Shown in pieces: positions 32,902 through 44,647 of a stretch of 64,000 nt of DNA. The stretch covers positions 1 to 64,000 of the forward strand of contig JAHQWJ010000014.1 in the NCBI GenBank assembly GCA_029856125.1. Direction: 5' to 3'. The notes below the pieces were generated by a model, which did no database searches, was not told where the DNA came from, and saw only the letters and a list, made by a program, of their open reading frames with translations. The stretch's first letter is position 1, and each line of letters starts with the position of its first letter. This DNA is from Promethearchaeia archaeon. GTDB taxonomy: Archaea > Asgardarchaeota > Lokiarchaeia > Sigyniarchaeales > SOKP01. The translations under genes and the position numbers were made by a program.

Positions 32902-34425
32902 ATGGCTCTTAATTGTAAAAAAAATCTTAAAATAGACAAGCCTATTGAACAATGTGCCGTATTTGGTGTTGCAAGCAAAGATAAAACTTTTACAATCTCA
33001 AGGCAGCTTTACCTTGGGCTTATTTCTCAACAACACCGCGGTCAAGAGTCCACTGGAATATCTATCCTGAAAACCGGTGGTTCAATTGTTACTTATAAAA
33101 ATAAAGGCTTAGTTTCTCAAGTATTAAATGATAAAGCTCTCTCTAAGTTGTGGGGAAATGTAGGGATTGCTCATAACCGCTACGCTACAACTGGAGCTCA
33201 AGAATACGATTCATTAGAGTATATTCAACCTTACCATTTTAAAAACGATGAAATCGAATTTTCATTAGCGTTCAACGGAACAATTCCAAACTACCATGAA
33301 TTGAAACAAGAGTTAGAGGCTCACGGTCGAATTTTCATAACTAACACTGATACAGAAGTTATCGCTCAATTAATAGCTTATACTGCAAATAAAACTGATA
33401 GCTGGCCCGAGATATTGAAAGAAATGAGTAAGTCTTTAGATGGGTCCTATTCACTCCTAATATTGACGAGTGAAAGCGATATTTATGCTATTAGAGATCC
33501 TTTAGGTTTTAAGCCTTTATGCATTGGAGAAATGATAACTAAAGAAAGAAAACATTACATAGTCTCCTCTGAATCCTGCGGCATTGATGTTGTCGGCGGT
33601 AATTTACTTAGGGATGTAAGGCCAGGAGAGATAATTCATTTAAGTAGTGAGAAGGGAATTCATTCAGAAATGGTTATAGAAAGCGAGAGAACTGCCCTTT
33701 GTCAGTTTGAATTCGTATATTTCGCTCGTCCTGATTCAATTATAGATGGAGTCTCTGTTGCTCAAACTAGGCTACAGTTAGGGATTAACCTTGCCAAAAA
33801 CGATCCAATTCTGGCTGATCCTCATTTTAGAGAAAATGCTATTGTGGTTCCAGTACCCGATTCTGGACGAAGTGTCGCCGTAGGTTACGCACAGGAAGCA
33901 AAATTACCTTACATGGAAGGGCTCATGAAAAATCGCTATGTGTGGCGCACGTTTATAATGCCTGGACAAAAAAAAAGAGAAGCGGCAGTTAAAGAGAAAT
34001 TAAACCCTATAAAAATTTTTGTTGAAGGGAAGAACGTAATTCTTTTGGACGACTCGATTGTAAGAGGTACTACAACAAAAAAGATTATATCCTTAATTAG
34101 AGAAGCTGGTGCCTTATCAGTAAATGTAAGGATAAGTTGTCCTCCTGTAATAAGACCGTGTTATATGGGTATCGATTTTCCTACAACCTCTGAGTTAATA
34201 GCTGGTCGTTTTAAAGAATTATACGGAAATGAAGCATATATCGATGAAATTAGGAAAAAAATCGGAGCAGATTCTCTGAGATATCAAACTATCGAGGATC
34301 TAATGAACGCAATAGGAAAAGGAAAAGACCAGCTATGTATGGCTTGCCTTACCGGAATTTATCCATTAAAATCTGTAAACAGGATTATAGAATTCGAAAA
34401 GGCTATATCGTCTAATAGAAACTAA
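32902..34425 (+). CDS. purF: Amidophosphoribosyltransferase (canonical, with propeptide and catalytic Cys)
   Basis: EQ-CAVFG, QHRGQE, HNRYATTG, VPVPDSG, DDSIVRGTT, CYMGID, CMAC. Confidence 0.95.
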   Translation: MALNCKKNLKIDKPIEQCAVFGVASKDKTFTISRQLYLGLISQQHRGQESTGISILKTGGSIVTYKNKGLVSQVLNDKALSKLWGNVGIAHNRYATTGAQEYDSLEYIQPYHFKNDEIEFSLAFNGTIPNYHELKQELEAHGRIFITNTDTEVIAQLIAYTANKTDSWPEILKEMSKSLDGSYSLLILTSESDIYAIRDPLGFKPLCIGEMITKERKHYIVSSESCGIDVVGGNLLRDVRPGEIIHLSSEKGIHSEMVIESERTALCQFEFVYFARPDSIIDGVSVAQTRLQLGINLAKNDPILADPHFRENAIVVPVPDSGRSVAVGYAQEAKLPYMEGLMKNRYVWRTFIMPGQKKREAAVKEKLNPIKIFVEGKNVILLDDSIVRGTTTKKIISLIREAGALSVNVRISCPPVIRPCYMGIDFPTTSELIAGRFKELYGNEAYIDEIRKKIGADSLRYQTIEDLMNAIGKGKDQLCMACLTGIYPLKSVNRIIEFEKAISSNRN

Positions 34426-34444
34426 CTAATCTACCTAAAAAATG

Positions 34445-35842
34445 CTACTCTACTCCATCCCAACAATATGTGCATAGTTTTTCCTTTGGCAACCCAATAG
34501 CTTTAACTAAGTTTTCTAACTTCTGATATTTTAACGTCGTTAAATGCAACTTTTCGCGAATAACATTGACCATTGCCTTATAATTATCAGACTCTGGATT
34601 TGTATATTCTACTGGGTTCTCTAAATCTCTGCCGATTAAATCTTTAATGGCCCATCTTCCTGCTAAATCTAGCTCAGAACGAGATCGAGAGAAGTTTAAA
34701 AACTTACATCCGTAAACAAGTGGAGGACAAGCAGTTCTCATGTGTACTTCTTTTGCTCCTGATTCAAACAACCTTTCAACTTGTCTTCTCAATTGAGTAC
34801 CTCTCACGATCGAGTCTTCGCAAAAGAGAAGACGTTTATCCGCGATAAGCTCTTTAATTGGTATAAGTTTCATCTTTGCGACTGTATCTCTAATGGATTG
34901 TTCTTGAGGCATGAAACTTCGGGGCCATGTTGGCGTATATTTTACAAAGGGTCGAGCATAGGGAATTTGTGCTTCGTTAGCGTAACCTAATCCATGAGCT
35001 GTACCCGAATCTGGGATCCCTGCTACGAGATCAATCTCCAGATCATCTTCTCTTCGTAGATAAGCACCACATTTATACCGAACAGATTCAACATTTATAC
35101 CCTCATAACTAGAAGCAGGATATCCATAATAGACCCATAAGAAAGAACATATTTGCAATTTATTACTTGGTGCAACCTTTTGTTCGAAACCCTTTTCACC
35201 TAGAAAAACGATCTCTCCAGGTCCTAGATATTTTGTTATTTCAAAACCAAGATTAGGGAATGCACAAGTTTCCATTGCAACAGCATAAGAACCGGGCTTT
35301 TCAGCTATAACGAGAGGTGTTCTACCTAGTGAATCGCGCGCAGCGAATATCCCTTTATCAGTTAAGATAAGAAGGGTACACGAACCATCGATCAAACTTT
35401 GAACCTTTTGAATACCTTCTTCAAATGTCGCTGCTTGGCTAATTATTGTTGCTACCATTTCCGTAGGGTTGATTTCTCCTCCATGCATTTCTGAGAAATG
35501 AGTTCCATTTTGTAACGCTTCGCTTGCGAGTTCTTCTAGGTTATTAATTTTACCTACTGTTGAAATGGCAAAAACACCTAGTCGTGAATTTATTATTAAG
35601 GGTTGATCTTCGTAATCGCTTATTACTCCTATCCCTTTATTTCCATGCATTTTTTTGATATCTTTATCGAATTTAGATCTAAATTGGCTCTTCGTTATAT
35701 CCTTGATGAACCTTTGAAAGCCACCAGAGTTTTTTACAGCCAAACCACCTCTCTTAGTTCCTAAATGCGAATGATAATCAGTACCATAAAAAAGGTCTTC
35801 TACACAGTCCGTATTCGAGAAAACGCCAAATAATCCTCCCAT
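34445..35842 (-). CDS. PurF homologue lacking the N-terminal catalytic Cys
   Basis: Starts MGGLFG; GIPDSG, EDSIVRGTQ, CTYCW retained. Confidence 0.85.
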   Translation of the reverse strand: MGGLFGVFSNTDCVEDLFYGTDYHSHLGTKRGGLAVKNSGGFQRFIKDITKSQFRSKFDKDIKKMHGNKGIGVISDYEDQPLIINSRLGVFAISTVGKINNLEELASEALQNGTHFSEMHGGEINPTEMVATIISQAATFEEGIQKVQSLIDGSCTLLILTDKGIFAARDSLGRTPLVIAEKPGSYAVAMETCAFPNLGFEITKYLGPGEIVFLGEKGFEQKVAPSNKLQICSFLWVYYGYPASSYEGINVESVRYKCGAYLRREDDLEIDLVAGIPDSGTAHGLGYANEAQIPYARPFVKYTPTWPRSFMPQEQSIRDTVAKMKLIPIKELIADKRLLFCEDSIVRGTQLRRQVERLFESGAKEVHMRTACPPLVYGCKFLNFSRSRSELDLAGRWAIKDLIGRDLENPVEYTNPESDNYKAMVNVIREKLHLTTLKYQKLENLVKAIGLPKEKLCTYCWDGVE

Positions 35843-39653: not shown

Positions 39654-40526
39654 ATGACAAATAACGATTTAAGATGGGATATCCCTTATCACAAAGCTTT
39701 TTTCAAAACTAGTCATAATTCTTTCAATATTTCTGTTCGAAAACAACTCAATCACGGTGTTAGAGGGCTTGAATACGACATACACGACGATAGGATTCAA
39801 GAAGTTGGCGATTTTGAAGTATATCACTTACCCAAACATGTTGACGCTGCACTTAATGTAGACGGAAATCCTGGAGACTTATTGCTATCTAATTGGCTCT
39901 TATTATTGAAAGACTGGTCAAATGATCAGAGTAACCAACACGCACCTATAACTCTTTTTATCGAATTGAAAGATTGTATTGTTGACGCAAATAACGAGCC
40001 AAGTGAATTATATGGCATTAAAAGGTTAAATAAAGTAATTCTTGATACATTATCACCTAAATACCTATATTCTCATAGCGATTTTAGAAAAAGCGAATAC
40101 CAATGGCCAACAGTAGGAGAATTAAAAGGATGCGTAATTATTGTATTAACCAGTTATTGGGGCGGTTATTGGGCTTCCAGTGAAGGGGGGTTCGAATCCC
40201 GTTTACAATATTTAGACAACTGTCTGAAAGGTGAAGATGACATTTGCTTCGTATCTTGGATCGAAGAAGATCGCGGAAAACAAAAATTATTTATGAAAGA
40301 GAAAGCAACATTTTGGAAATGTAGCATAGAGCTTAGCACTAAAAATTATGAAGAGAATGTGAAATTACAACGATCCACGAGAGTTGATTTTGATAAAATA
40401 AGAATGGGGCGTCATGTGAAAACGTATTACGAAAAAAATTATAAAAGTGGTTTTAGAGCAAATTTCATGGCGACTGATTCTTGGGCGACAACAGAATATG
40501 AAAACTCATATCCTTGGTCGATTTAA
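39654..40526 (+). CDS. PI-PLC-like phosphodiesterase (TIM barrel)
   Basis: SHNSF, QLNHGVRGLEYDIH, HAPITLFIELKD, WPTVGELKG. Confidence 0.75.
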   Translation: MTNNDLRWDIPYHKAFFKTSHNSFNISVRKQLNHGVRGLEYDIHDDRIQEVGDFEVYHLPKHVDAALNVDGNPGDLLLSNWLLLLKDWSNDQSNQHAPITLFIELKDCIVDANNEPSELYGIKRLNKVILDTLSPKYLYSHSDFRKSEYQWPTVGELKGCVIIVLTSYWGGYWASSEGGFESRLQYLDNCLKGEDDICFVSWIEEDRGKQKLFMKEKATFWKCSIELSTKNYEENVKLQRSTRVDFDKIRMGRHVKTYYEKNYKSGFRANFMATDSWATTEYENSYPWSI

Positions 40527-41758: not shown

Positions 41759-42847
41759 TTAGTGATATTTATAATATATACTACAAGTTCCCTCCATTGA
41801 AACCATGCAAGGCCCGATAGGATTAAGAGGAGTACAAGATTCTCTAAAAAGTTCACATTCAGTGGGATAAATTTTACCAACCATGACTAAGTGACAAGAA
41901 CATCCTGGAGGAATATCTTGCGATTTATTAATCTTTATATCAAATTTCTTATCAGCGTCAAATTCTTCGTATTTGTCTCGTATAGCCAATCCTCCGTCAA
42001 GAATTCGTCCAATTCCTCTCCAAGGACTTGATACTGATTGAAAAACATCGGCTATAATTCCCTGAGCAATTTTATTTCCCTCAGGTTTTACAACTCTCGA
42101 ATACTCGTTTAACGTTTCGAATTTTTTATTTTTTATTTGCTGGAGAAGCATTAAGATACCCAATAATACGTCGTTAGGTTCAAAACCGGCGATCACGTTA
42201 GGTACTTTATAAGCGTCTGAAAAGATCTTAAATGGTTGTAAACCTATAATTGTAGAAACGTGACCCGGTGATATAAATCCATCAATCCGAAGCTGCGATT
42301 GACTGATTAAAAGTTCCAAAGCCGCTGGAATTAATTTATAGGCACAAATTACAGAGAAATTAGAAGGAGGTCCGCTTTGAATTTCGTATCCTATCAGTGG
42401 AGCAGTGGTTTCAAAGCCAATAGCAAAAAATATTACTTCTTTATTTGGATTTTCTTTAGCGATTTTAACTGCGTCGTGCGGCCCGTAAACTATTCTTACA
42501 TCTGCACCTTTCGCCTTTGCTTGTGCTAAAGATAGGTTGGTAGCTGGAACGCGTATCATATCCCCAAAAGTAGTGATGATAGTGTCGTCTCGTTTCCCAA
42601 TCTCAATTGCCTTATCGATATCTGCAGCAGGACATACGCAAACAGGGCACCCCGGACCTGAAAGGATTTCGATCTCCTTAGGTAACAACGGTCTTAGCCC
42701 ATACTTCGAAAGAGTGTGTTCGTGAGTGCCACACACGTGCATAAACTTAACTGGTTTATTTATATCCTTTACAATTTTATTTATTGATTTAATTATTTTT
42801 TCAGTGAATTCTCTGCTTCTTAAAATTTTAATTCCTGGAATATCCAT
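41759..42847 (-). CDS. hypD: Hydrogenase maturation protein HypD
   Basis: HVCGTHE, GPGCPVC, GFETT, PGHVS, GPCMVSMEGTC. Confidence 0.96.
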   Translation of the reverse strand: MDIPGIKILRSREFTEKIIKSINKIVKDINKPVKFMHVCGTHEHTLSKYGLRPLLPKEIEILSGPGCPVCVCPAADIDKAIEIGKRDDTIITTFGDMIRVPATNLSLAQAKAKGADVRIVYGPHDAVKIAKENPNKEVIFFAIGFETTAPLIGYEIQSGPPSNFSVICAYKLIPAALELLISQSQLRIDGFISPGHVSTIIGLQPFKIFSDAYKVPNVIAGFEPNDVLLGILMLLQQIKNKKFETLNEYSRVVKPEGNKIAQGIIADVFQSVSSPWRGIGRILDGGLAIRDKYEEFDADKKFDIKINKSQDIPPGCSCHLVMVGKIYPTECELFRESCTPLNPIGPCMVSMEGTCSIYYKYH

Positions 42848-42862
42848 CTTTTTCAGTCTATT

Positions 42863-43531
42863 TTAATCAATAATGATGTGTTCTAAAATTTGACCCGAAG
42901 TATCAAAACACTTTATACTATCAGAACGATTGTAAGGATGGGCCAATAACATTGTAAATCTTCGTTTTTTAAAAATCTGGTTTAGTTTCTCATTCGTTGA
43001 GAGCGTGCCTGATGGGCGTGATATGAAAGTTCCTTCATATGAGAAATCTAATGGAATACTACAGGTTGGTCTGATTATCTCAAAATCTTTATCACTATCA
43101 GTACAAGCTCTTGATGATATTATATATTCAGATACAACTCCTTTGTGGACTCCCAATATCCCCTTCATTTTTTTAGGATGACCCTTTTGACACATATCAA
43201 CTAATCCCTCAAGAAAATCTTTTTTAATCATAATTTGATTTAATTTCATATTATCAATTAATAAAAGAATTTCATCAATTATTTCTAAAACGGAGTCTGT
43301 TGAATGTTTGTTCCAATTCCGTAATGAGGATACGATCCGACTGAGTTTAAATTGATCTGTTCTATTTTTAATTAAATAAGCTTTTAGTTTTTTTGGATAT
43401 CTTCTAAAATCGACTTCTAACGAAATTTCATTATTGATTTCAAAATGCAAAAGATAGTTATCTCCGCCAACTGAAATAGCACCTGGAAATTTCTCAAGAA
43501 CTTTTCGATATTCTTCCTTTCTTATATCCAT
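42863..43531 (-). CDS. UBC/RWD-like domain fused to inactive JAB/MPN domain
   Basis: N-terminal ISLEVDFRRYPKK...LRNW...VLEIIDEI; C-terminal GTFISRPSG...LAHPY...IKCFD resembling archaeal JAMM with the metal ligands lost. Confidence 0.6.
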   Translation of the reverse strand: MDIRKEEYRKVLEKFPGAISVGGDNYLLHFEINNEISLEVDFRRYPKKLKAYLIKNRTDQFKLSRIVSSLRNWNKHSTDSVLEIIDEILLLIDNMKLNQIMIKKDFLEGLVDMCQKGHPKKMKGILGVHKGVVSEYIISSRACTDSDKDFEIIRPTCSIPLDFSYEGTFISRPSGTLSTNEKLNQIFKKRRFTMLLAHPYNRSDSIKCFDTSGQILEHIIID

Positions 43532-43594
43532 AGTTTTCTCAAATTGTTATGGTTTATTTTATTTACGATTAAAATTTAAATTTCTGTAGTTATC

Positions 43595-44647
43595 TTAACA
43601 AATTCTCGGTATTGGTTCCCCTAAAGGCATATCTACAAACCGTGTTCCCCCTACTATGGTGTTTAAAAGTACCCTTTTAGGATTGTCTGACTTGACTACG
43701 CCGATTATCTCTGCGTCTTTTCCAATTGATGTTGATAGTATTTTAGATAAGATTTTTTCCGCTCGATTTGGATCTACAGACATAAGAGCTCTCCCCTCAG
43801 AAGCAATCGCATAAGGATCTAATCCCAGCATTTCACATATGGCATTAACTTGCTTTTTGATTGGAATCTTGTCTTCTTCTAAAGTAATACTTACATTTGA
43901 TTTATTTGCCCAATCGTTGAGTGCCCCTGCTATCCCACCTCTTGTTGGGTCTTTCATTGCGTGGATGTGATTATTTTCAATTTCTTCTTTAAGAACGTTG
44001 TAAATCTCAAGTAAATGCGCTACATCAGAATTCAAGTCAGTTGAAATATTTAAGCCTTCACGGCTTCCAATTAGTGCGCTCCCATGGTCACCAATACTCC
44101 CCGTAACAATAATGGTATCTCCCGGTTTTAAGTTAGCATCCAAAACTTTTATGTTTTTATCCTTGATTCCAATCCCCGTTGTTGCCATTATCATTTCGTT
44201 CAGGGTCCCCTTAGGCATTACCTTGGTGTCTCCAGCGATAATCGCAACGTTCGCCTCTTTAGCTTTGTTATTAAATGAATTAAGGATTTTGTTTAGTTGA
44301 TCGAACTTAAAACCCTCCTCTATAATAACTATCGACGTTAATGCTATAGGTTGAGCACCCATCATTATTAAATCGTTTACCGTGCCACAAACGCTTAATG
44401 TCCCTAAATTGCCCCCCGGAAAAAAAAGTGGATAAACAGTGTGTCCATCGGCAGTAATTACAATTTCTTTTTCATACTCATCTAAAGGAATTGTTGCTCC
44501 ATCGTCAAGTTCTTGAACTCCTATACCTTTGTTTACATTTTTAAAGGTAATATTTCTCGTAACATACGAGATTAGTTCTTCTTGTAATTTGCCACCAGCA
44601 CCATGAGCTAACGTAATTATATTTGAGCTCACTTTTTTCATACTCAT
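43595..44647 (-). CDS. hypE: Hydrogenase maturation protein HypE
   Basis: LAHGAGG, GTVND, GDTKV, DPTRGG, C-terminal PRIC. Confidence 0.96.
   Translation of the reverse strand: MSMKKVSSNIITLAHGAGGKLQEELISYVTRNITFKNVNKGIGVQELDDGATIPLDEYEKEIVITADGHTVYPLFFPGGNLGTLSVCGTVNDLIMMGAQPIALTSIVIIEEGFKFDQLNKILNSFNNKAKEANVAIIAGDTKVMPKGTLNEMIMATTGIGIKDKNIKVLDANLKPGDTIIVTGSIGDHGSALIGSREGLNISTDLNSDVAHLLEIYNVLKEEIENNHIHAMKDPTRGGIAGALNDWANKSNVSITLEEDKIPIKKQVNAICEMLGLDPYAIASEGRALMSVDPNRAEKILSKILSTSIGKDAEIIGVVKSDNPKRVLLNTIVGGTRFVDMPLGEPIPRIC

Follow-up and report, generated by a model that had tools for sequence, protein, structure and literature searches.

The locus analysed here raises the question of why an Asgard archaeon would keep a protein built like a deubiquitinase that has lost its catalytic residues, and why the gene for it should lie between hypE and hypD. 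The window is a stretch of 64,000 nucleotides from a Promethearchaeia archaeon of the class Lokiarchaeia. The open reading frame, whose position between the two hyp genes and whose exact coordinates (42863-43531, minus strand) had been given in an earlier note on this DNA, encodes a 222-aa protein, begins 63 bp after hypE and ends 15 bp before hypD. The features of the locus are as follows:

43595..44647, minus strand: hypE, a neighbour outside the system (gene calls and Pfam)
43532..43594, minus strand: conserved AT-rich upstream element, kept with the gene across loci
42863..43531, minus strand: gene for the UBC-like plus pseudo-JAMM2 protein (P0001), 222 aa (dN/dS 0.13-0.29)
43241..43531, minus strand: residues 1-97, Cys-less domain of UBC/UEV/RWD fold (AF2 pLDDT 90; VIA Z 8.2-8.7; hhalign E 3.7e-5)
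42866..43240, minus strand: residues 98-222, JAMM2/AfJAMM-type MPN domain, catalytically dead as judged from sequence (profile, Foldseek, VIA)
43169..43171, minus strand: K121 at the catalytic Glu position, invariant within the dead clade (alignment)
43043..43120, minus strand: remodelled Ins-1 loop, residues 138-163, with C143 and C157 invariant in, and specific to, the dead clade (alignment; low pLDDT at 140-163)
43016..43024, minus strand: I170-S171-R172 at the zinc-binding H-S-H position, R172 invariant (alignment)
42983..42994, minus strand: N180 at the catalytic Ser position, invariant, and K182/L183 at the zinc-binding Asp position (alignment)
41759..42847, minus strand: hypD, a neighbour outside the system (gene calls and Pfam)

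A UBC-like domain joined to a catalytically altered MPN domain

The N-terminal domain comprises a helix, a four-stranded meander, a Tyr-Pro pair at residues 45-46, W73 and a closing helix that continues into the MPN domain (AF2 pLDDT 90, from a 91-sequence alignment). This is the helix, meander, YPxxxP-type turn, Trp and closing-helix arrangement by which the UBC superfamily is recognized; P46 and W73 are invariant, and the family consensus is YPKKP, the second Pro of which is L49 in the 222-aa protein. Foldseek returned no match to this model at E<=1e-3, and neither a sequence-profile search of the PDB nor an Atlas feature search with the domain gave anything significant, so that the fold assignment is based on VIA-align and on a profile link. 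Among 48,161 chains, the six best VIA-align matches were tied at Z 8.2-8.7 and consisted of VPS37A, the Tsg101 UEV, the Vps23 UEV, two E2s and residues 268-376 of the BRISC chain 6h3c_C, which we take to be the UEV-C of BRE; nearly all of the top 50 were UBC-superfamily domains. The profile link runs through an Asgard protein with four UBC repeats and a RING: the N-domain profile finds its middle repeats, its outer repeats exceed the Pfam UQ_con/RWD cut-offs, and hhalign connects N-domain-type repeats to the Pfam-positive UBC/RWD repeats (E 3.7e-5, probability 71%). Profile comparison thus indicates that those middle repeats and the N-domain represent one module, and the model-based matches confirm, at the level of the fold, the membership of the N-domain in the UBC superfamily, with the subtype (UEV, RWD or E2) left unassigned.

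Residues 1-97 contain neither a Cys nor an HPN motif, and neither is conserved across the family, which marks the domain as a non-catalytic, UEV/RWD-like module rather than an active E2. Its closest structural matches, the Tsg101/Vps23/VPS37A and Asgard Vps23 UEVs (Z 8.5-8.7), likewise have no catalytic Cys, but the N-domain is shorter (97 aa), has no Vps23 stalk or steadiness box, and is encoded outside an ESCRT cluster. Pfam matches to BRE are weak (E 0.017-0.025; 13.9 bits against a cut-off of 25.8), occur in 7 of 91 family members, and tie with scores for ESCRT UEVs and E2s, so that the likeness is one of fold. The protein also has a single UBC-like domain instead of the UEV-RWD-UEV series of BRE/BRCC45.

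The four-UBC protein (P0166, P0170, P0176; L136:2395-4071, L137, L139, L143; 550-620 aa) has four tandem Cys-less UBC/RWD-like domains followed by a Cys-rich, RING-like C-terminal region, an arrangement that recalls the UBC repeats and RING of FANCL. A shorter version occurs at L140:2209-3315; no copy of the protein turned up in this genome. A further occurrence of the UBC-like module (E 3e-8) is in a 573-aa product at L174:220-1941 (G000:C143), where it precedes a region that on inspection resembles a degenerate ABC-ATPase domain; this product has no Pfam match at E<=0.1.

Turning to the C-terminal half, the only significant match in a PDB sequence search was AfJAMM (E 0.0015 with the single sequence, 7e-8 with a profile). 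The AlphaFold model (pLDDT 75, low confidence at residues 140-163) agrees: its MPN domain superposes on 1r5x with a Foldseek E of 1e-7 and a VIA-align Z of 13.8 (rmsd 2.0 Å over 102 residues), ahead of PfJAMM1 (10.5), BRCC36/ABRO1 chains (9-10) and CsRpn11 (8.8), with eukaryotic MPN- pseudo-deubiquitinases matching at about 8-10. For the profiles of both forms of the family, dead and active, AfJAMM is the sole significant PDB sequence match, with JAMM1 and Rpn11-type proteins more distant; AfJAMM (PDB 1R5X/1OI0) and HvJAMM2 are the closest known proteins to residues 98-222 in sequence and structure.

JAMM metalloproteases carry the motif E-xn-H-[S/T]-H-x7-S-x2-D (PMC300881). Compared with intact-motif sisters, the 222-aa protein retains the MPN fold and none of the five catalytic residues: Glu is replaced by K121, the two His by I170 and R172, Ser by N180, and Asp by L183 or K182, the choice hinging on a one-residue indel that places K182 there in some alignments and L183 in another. 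Because no zinc ligand remains, established chemistry would rule out JAMM-type catalysis, and we infer that the protein is unable to cleave isopeptide linkages in the way that JAMM enzymes do. AfJAMM and HvJAMM2 differ from it in keeping the motif, although they are inactive in isolation; the dead form further departs from them in its fusion to a UBC-fold domain and in a rebuilt Ins-1 loop.

Both halves therefore model as the folds that the earlier note had proposed, namely a Cys-less E2/RWD-like domain of about 95 residues with YP and Trp, and an archaeal JAMM-like domain of about 125 residues with every catalytic position exchanged (E to K, HSH to ISR, S to N, D to L); the outcome that the note had named as refuting, a failure of the halves to take these folds, did not occur. 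Its comparison of the C-terminal half with inactive MPN subunits holds for the loss of the motif, but not for type, which is JAMM2/AfJAMM rather than Rpn11/BRCC36.

Origin of the dead clade and selection on the rebuilt site

At E<=1e-3 the 222-aa protein has 140 homologs; where a taxon is named, it is Lokiarchaeota/Promethearchaeota or Hermodarchaeota. Alignment of distant loci revealed the same two-domain architecture, at the same length, in two forms: one keeps E...HSH-x7-S-x2-D, whereas the other is dead, with 68 full-length copies of the first and 15 of the second (14 plus the 222-aa protein). The UBC-like domain is retained in all full-length copies examined, and dead and intact-motif copies share 30-38% identity. 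Two single-contig genomes carry an intact copy (G143) and a near-intact copy with H-N-H (G138). A search of 400 genomes from the phylum turned up the fusion only in the Lokiarchaeia order to which this genome belongs; matches in other classes are stand-alone JAMM2 or UBC-only proteins. Searched against the PDB, the intact-sister profile finds AfJAMM at E 3e-27, with PfJAMM1 and CsRpn11 absent at E<=10. Since AfJAMM clusters with HvJAMM2 (PMC4895103), the fusion can be understood as the JAMM2 of this order with an added UBC-like domain. HvJAMM2 is needed for proteasomal turnover of TBP2, is inactive in isolation, and has been proposed to require partners (PMC4895103; also PMC6043591).

In a tree built with the catalytic and Ins-1 columns removed and without eukaryotic sequences, the 12 dead representatives are monophyletic (100/100) and nested within a clade (97/96) of intact-motif copies from the family of this genome; a second tree agrees. 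Of the 42 genomes in the genus, 16 have the dead form; beyond these it is found in G155 and in two members of another family, G131 and G132. This nesting marks it as a lineage-restricted derivative and not an ancestor of eukaryotic MPN- proteins, nor does the same tree, given those two support values, place it as a descendant of their lineage. The hypothesis that all degenerate copies share one origin was rejected (AU p 7e-5, for a group defined by motif state after the first tree). Three other degenerate members, P0126 (L180:4223-4864), P0129 (L178:5001-5726) and P0136 (L179:2473-3177), have metabolic neighbours and fall outside the dead clade, so the active site has been lost more than once, at least twice, in the family.

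The family includes further variants. A four-part fusion of AN1 zinc finger, TPR, UBC-like and JAMM2 domains with an intact motif is found in P0150, P0153 and at L125:2926-4416; G132 has both this fusion and a dead copy. A second family copy in G270 (L127, G270:C122:1785-2189) is broken by in-frame stops, and an N-domain-only fragment lies near an intact copy at L094:910-1140 (G185). Our search, which is weak evidence on this point, found no longer fused forms of the dead clade.

The dead form resembles eukaryotic MPN- pseudo-deubiquitinases (Abraxas/ABRO1, Rpn8, CSN6, eIF3f) in combining the MPN fold with a degenerate motif under selection. It differs from them in its separate origin, in the want of a C-terminal extension, the model ending at the MPN core, and apparently in having no obligatory active partner in the genome. 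Rpn8, CSN6 and eIF3f are paralogs within PCI complexes (PMC6043591). BRE/BRCC45 of BRCA1-A/BRISC similarly sets a Cys-less UEV/RWD domain beside an MPN- domain (Z 8.2 to 6h3c_C), but does so with three such domains in a separate chain, as opposed to one in cis. Because the fusion is mainly an intact-motif enzyme from which the dead form is derived, the likeness to BRE and Abraxas, and to eukaryotic MPN- proteins at large, is on the sequence comparisons a convergence of separate origins. Orthology to BRE or Abraxas was rejected, given the BRE score below the Pfam cut-off and the nesting of the dead form in Lokiarchaeia JAMM2 fusions.

The dead form is under purifying selection. Against nine orthologs, dN/dS (simple NG86 pairs, all sharing one sequence) spans 0.13-0.29 for the whole protein; the UBC domain gives 0.22-0.54 and the MPN domain 0.08-0.19, with the strongest constraint, 0.04-0.16, across the dead motif itself (residues 164-200). 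K121, C143, C157, R172, N180, R190 and T193 are invariant in 28 non-redundant dead sequences, and the replacement residues stay so down to about 37% identity. The Ins-1 loop is 3-6 residues longer, and positions in it that are conserved in intact copies (P140, G141, S145, F151, P156 and R158) are replaced in the dead clade. Strong selection together with new invariants indicates that the dead site has been rebuilt rather than left to decay. The geometry of the new residues is read from the alignment, because Ins-1 is of low confidence in the model and is disordered in the AfJAMM crystal (PMC300881). That the gene is a functionless, decaying duplicate would suit its patchy presence and its absence from several close relatives, but intact reading frames in the 140 homologs, the low dN/dS and the invariance of the replacement residues leave this idea barely credible, and we rejected a pseudogene as contradicted by the selection data.

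A variable junction between hypE and hypD

The earlier note had left the position within a tight hypE-X-hypD run unexplained. The gaps of 63 and 15 bp are indeed short here, but the run is not a stable unit across the genus. Of its 30 hypD loci, 28 are informative: hypE abuts hypD in 11, a toxin-antitoxin pair alone separates them in 7, another gene does so in 1, and the pseudo-JAMM gene in 9, the last order being restricted to a subclade of at least 67% identity. An accessory factor of [NiFe]-hydrogenase maturation, acting with HypD and HypE, would account for a co-oriented gene between the two with short gaps, here and in about ten related genomes; two conserved Cys might also fit, as might one intact sister lying two genes past hypE-hypD in G153. 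Conserved presence with hypD and hypE is not what we find, however. The gene is absent from 19 of the 28 junctions, including those of genomes whose HypD is 90-95% identical. Other genes intervene in four loci, namely an MNT-HEPN toxin-antitoxin pair between hypE and the pseudo-JAMM gene in three and an opposite-strand gene between the pseudo-JAMM gene and hypD in one. Seven dead copies have no hyp genes nearby, and the GC content of the gene is 0.305 against 0.37-0.38 for the hyp genes. A role in Hyp maturation is hence highly improbable, and we rejected it in view of the variable junctions. The synteny comparison explains the position instead: the contents of the junction vary, the gene is one of its passengers, and its place among the hyp genes is incidental.

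The 63-bp AT-rich upstream element accompanies the pseudo-JAMM gene even where a toxin-antitoxin pair intervenes before hypE, and may be the gene's own promoter; a sigma-70 promoter scan, a model unsuited to an archaeon, was uninformative.

The junction itself is a local insertion hotspot. In ten genomes the MNT-HEPN pair (nucleotidyltransferase and HepT-like) occupies it on the opposite strand, whether the pseudo-JAMM gene is there or not (L146, L149-L151, L154, L156, L158; L008:7120-7757). The G153 sister (L093:47-3651) lies past an uninterrupted hypE-hypD, is the only intact-motif copy seen near hyp genes, and is there probably by chance. Two of the dead copies elsewhere, in G131 and G132, have an opposite-strand actin-family gene just downstream (L021:8659-9792, L020:9891-10994), one gene intervening in L020. 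Within the window, 39654-40526 (plus strand) encodes a 290-aa protein with a weak match to PI-specific phospholipase C (PF16670, E 7e-7, just below the cut-off); in seven related loci its gene separates hypD from hypF and is read from the opposite strand. At 32902-35842 lie two convergent genes that, on inspection of their translations, are purF-like (amidophosphoribosyltransferase-like), and both are found in three related loci.

A candidate non-cleaving regulator of ubiquitin-like tagging

Having established the folds, the origin and the selection, we weighed what the protein might do. The reading that we favour, at a probability of roughly 0.55, is that it takes part in ubiquitin-like tagging as a binder or regulator that does not cleave, derived from the UBC-like-JAMM2 fusion. 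Both folds, the kinship to JAMM2, the selection on the dead motif, and the presence in this genome of ubiquitin-like proteins, two E2s and seven JAMM-motif proteins, with Rpn11-like JAMMs among the genome's proteins, speak for such a role; the weaker constraint on the N-domain than on the dead MPN domain counts against it. Three of these seven JAMM-motif proteins, all long (331-485 aa), are clustered on one contig at G000:C127:1778-6690.

Under this proposal, a Lokiarchaeia UBC-like-JAMM2 fusion would, most simply, have been duplicated and one copy would then have lost its zinc site. The product would act as a tag reader, or as a competitor, within the pathway to which JAMM2 is assigned, that of ubiquitin-like (SAMP/Urm1/ubiquitin) tagging with proteasomal turnover. 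The Cys-less UBC domain may offer a surface for a tag or a partner, by analogy with UEV domains; Asgard UEV domains bind ubiquitin (PMC9192718). K121, R172 and N180 could line the former zinc pocket and accommodate an anionic group there, the simplest candidate being the free C-terminal carboxylate of a mature tag, while C143 and C157 might clamp the Ins-1 hairpin; both the anion pocket and the Cys clamp are ideas drawn from the alignment. In this way the protein could protect tags or act in competition with active JAMMs, in the role of an accessory regulator that is often missing from close relatives. Ins-1 positions the C-terminus of the tag in JAMMs (PMC6043591), and the replacement of its residues means that the original substrate may no longer bind.

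That last point leaves room for a function outside tagging altogether, in which the pocket residues K121, R141, R172, N180 and R190 and the Cys pair C143 and C157 would make up a novel site, binding a small anion, a phosphopeptide, nucleic acid or a metal, or carrying out thiol-redox or persulfide chemistry. The new invariants of the 28 sequences, the rebuilt and lengthened Ins-1 and the peak of selection on the dead motif would all agree with this, as would the genomic neighbourhoods. Among the annotated part of the family's neighbours we saw no recurring ubiquitin-system gene but mixed, mostly metabolic contexts, and the neighbours of intact-motif copies are likewise varied and mostly metabolic. 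Against it stand the retention of the UBC-like domain in every full-length copy examined and the net charge of the MPN half, which at +3.1 in the dead form and +3.2 in the active form shows no overall shift toward a basic surface. We regard such neofunctionalisation as the less probable course, though one to be taken seriously.

A different partner-based possibility is that the protein is the obligate MPN- half of a heterodimer with an intact sister or an Rpn11-like JAMM, which it would activate as Abraxas/ABRO1 does for BRCC36 or Rpn8 for Rpn11, with a BRE-like UEV built in. Both forms do occur together in nine genomes from the genus and in one further genome, and JAMM2 enzymes, which show no activity on their own, are believed to depend on partners (PMC4895103). 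Yet no intact-motif two-domain sister was found in this genome (99% complete), and G236 (100%) and G248 (98%) also carry the dead form without one. Among the 42 genomes of the genus the two forms co-occur at chance level (both 9, dead only 7, active only 12, neither 14; Fisher p 0.75, for related, non-independent genomes and incomplete assemblies), and most intact-motif copies lie in genomes with no detected dead copy. The 222-aa protein also lacks the C-terminal helical extension. In eukaryotes, C-terminal helices are what pair MPN subunits. Because this genome is without the intact sister, an obligate, BRCC36-Abraxas-like pairing with it is unlikely, and the heterodimer as a whole seems a poor prospect. 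Slightly better odds, though still long ones, attach to the broader idea that Lokiarchaeia independently evolved an MPN+/MPN- pair in which the dead UEV-MPN- protein binds an active JAMM and switches it on or off.

The non-cleaving regulator of tagging hence remains our preferred reading, and with it the adaptor-like pseudo-deubiquitinase proposed in the earlier note: the folds and the catalytic loss stand, but the protein is a derived paralog whose likeness to BRE and Abraxas is convergent.

Inactive MPN subunits are a hallmark of the eukaryotic proteasome lid, CSN, eIF3 and BRCA1-A/BRISC. In the literature searched, which was largely open-access and included Asgard surveys, we found neither a UBC-like-JAMM2 fusion nor an archaeal MPN- protein, and an organisation of active and inactive MPN proteins was not known in archaea (Fuchs et al. 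2018; PMC6043591). Asgard archaea, too, thus keep a selected MPN protein, dead to judge by its motif, that is fused to a UEV-like domain. The value of the finding is moderate, the dead clade being lineage-restricted, patchy and off the line to eukaryotic MPN- proteins. Nevertheless, paired active and dead paralogs in the same genomes make a small test system for the origin of pseudo-deubiquitinases and for binding by JAMM2. Were the MPN+/MPN- pair to prove true, it would be a prokaryotic deubiquitinase regulated by a pseudo-deubiquitinase, with the roles of BRE and Abraxas folded into one chain, and a model for the rise of pseudo-enzyme subunits.
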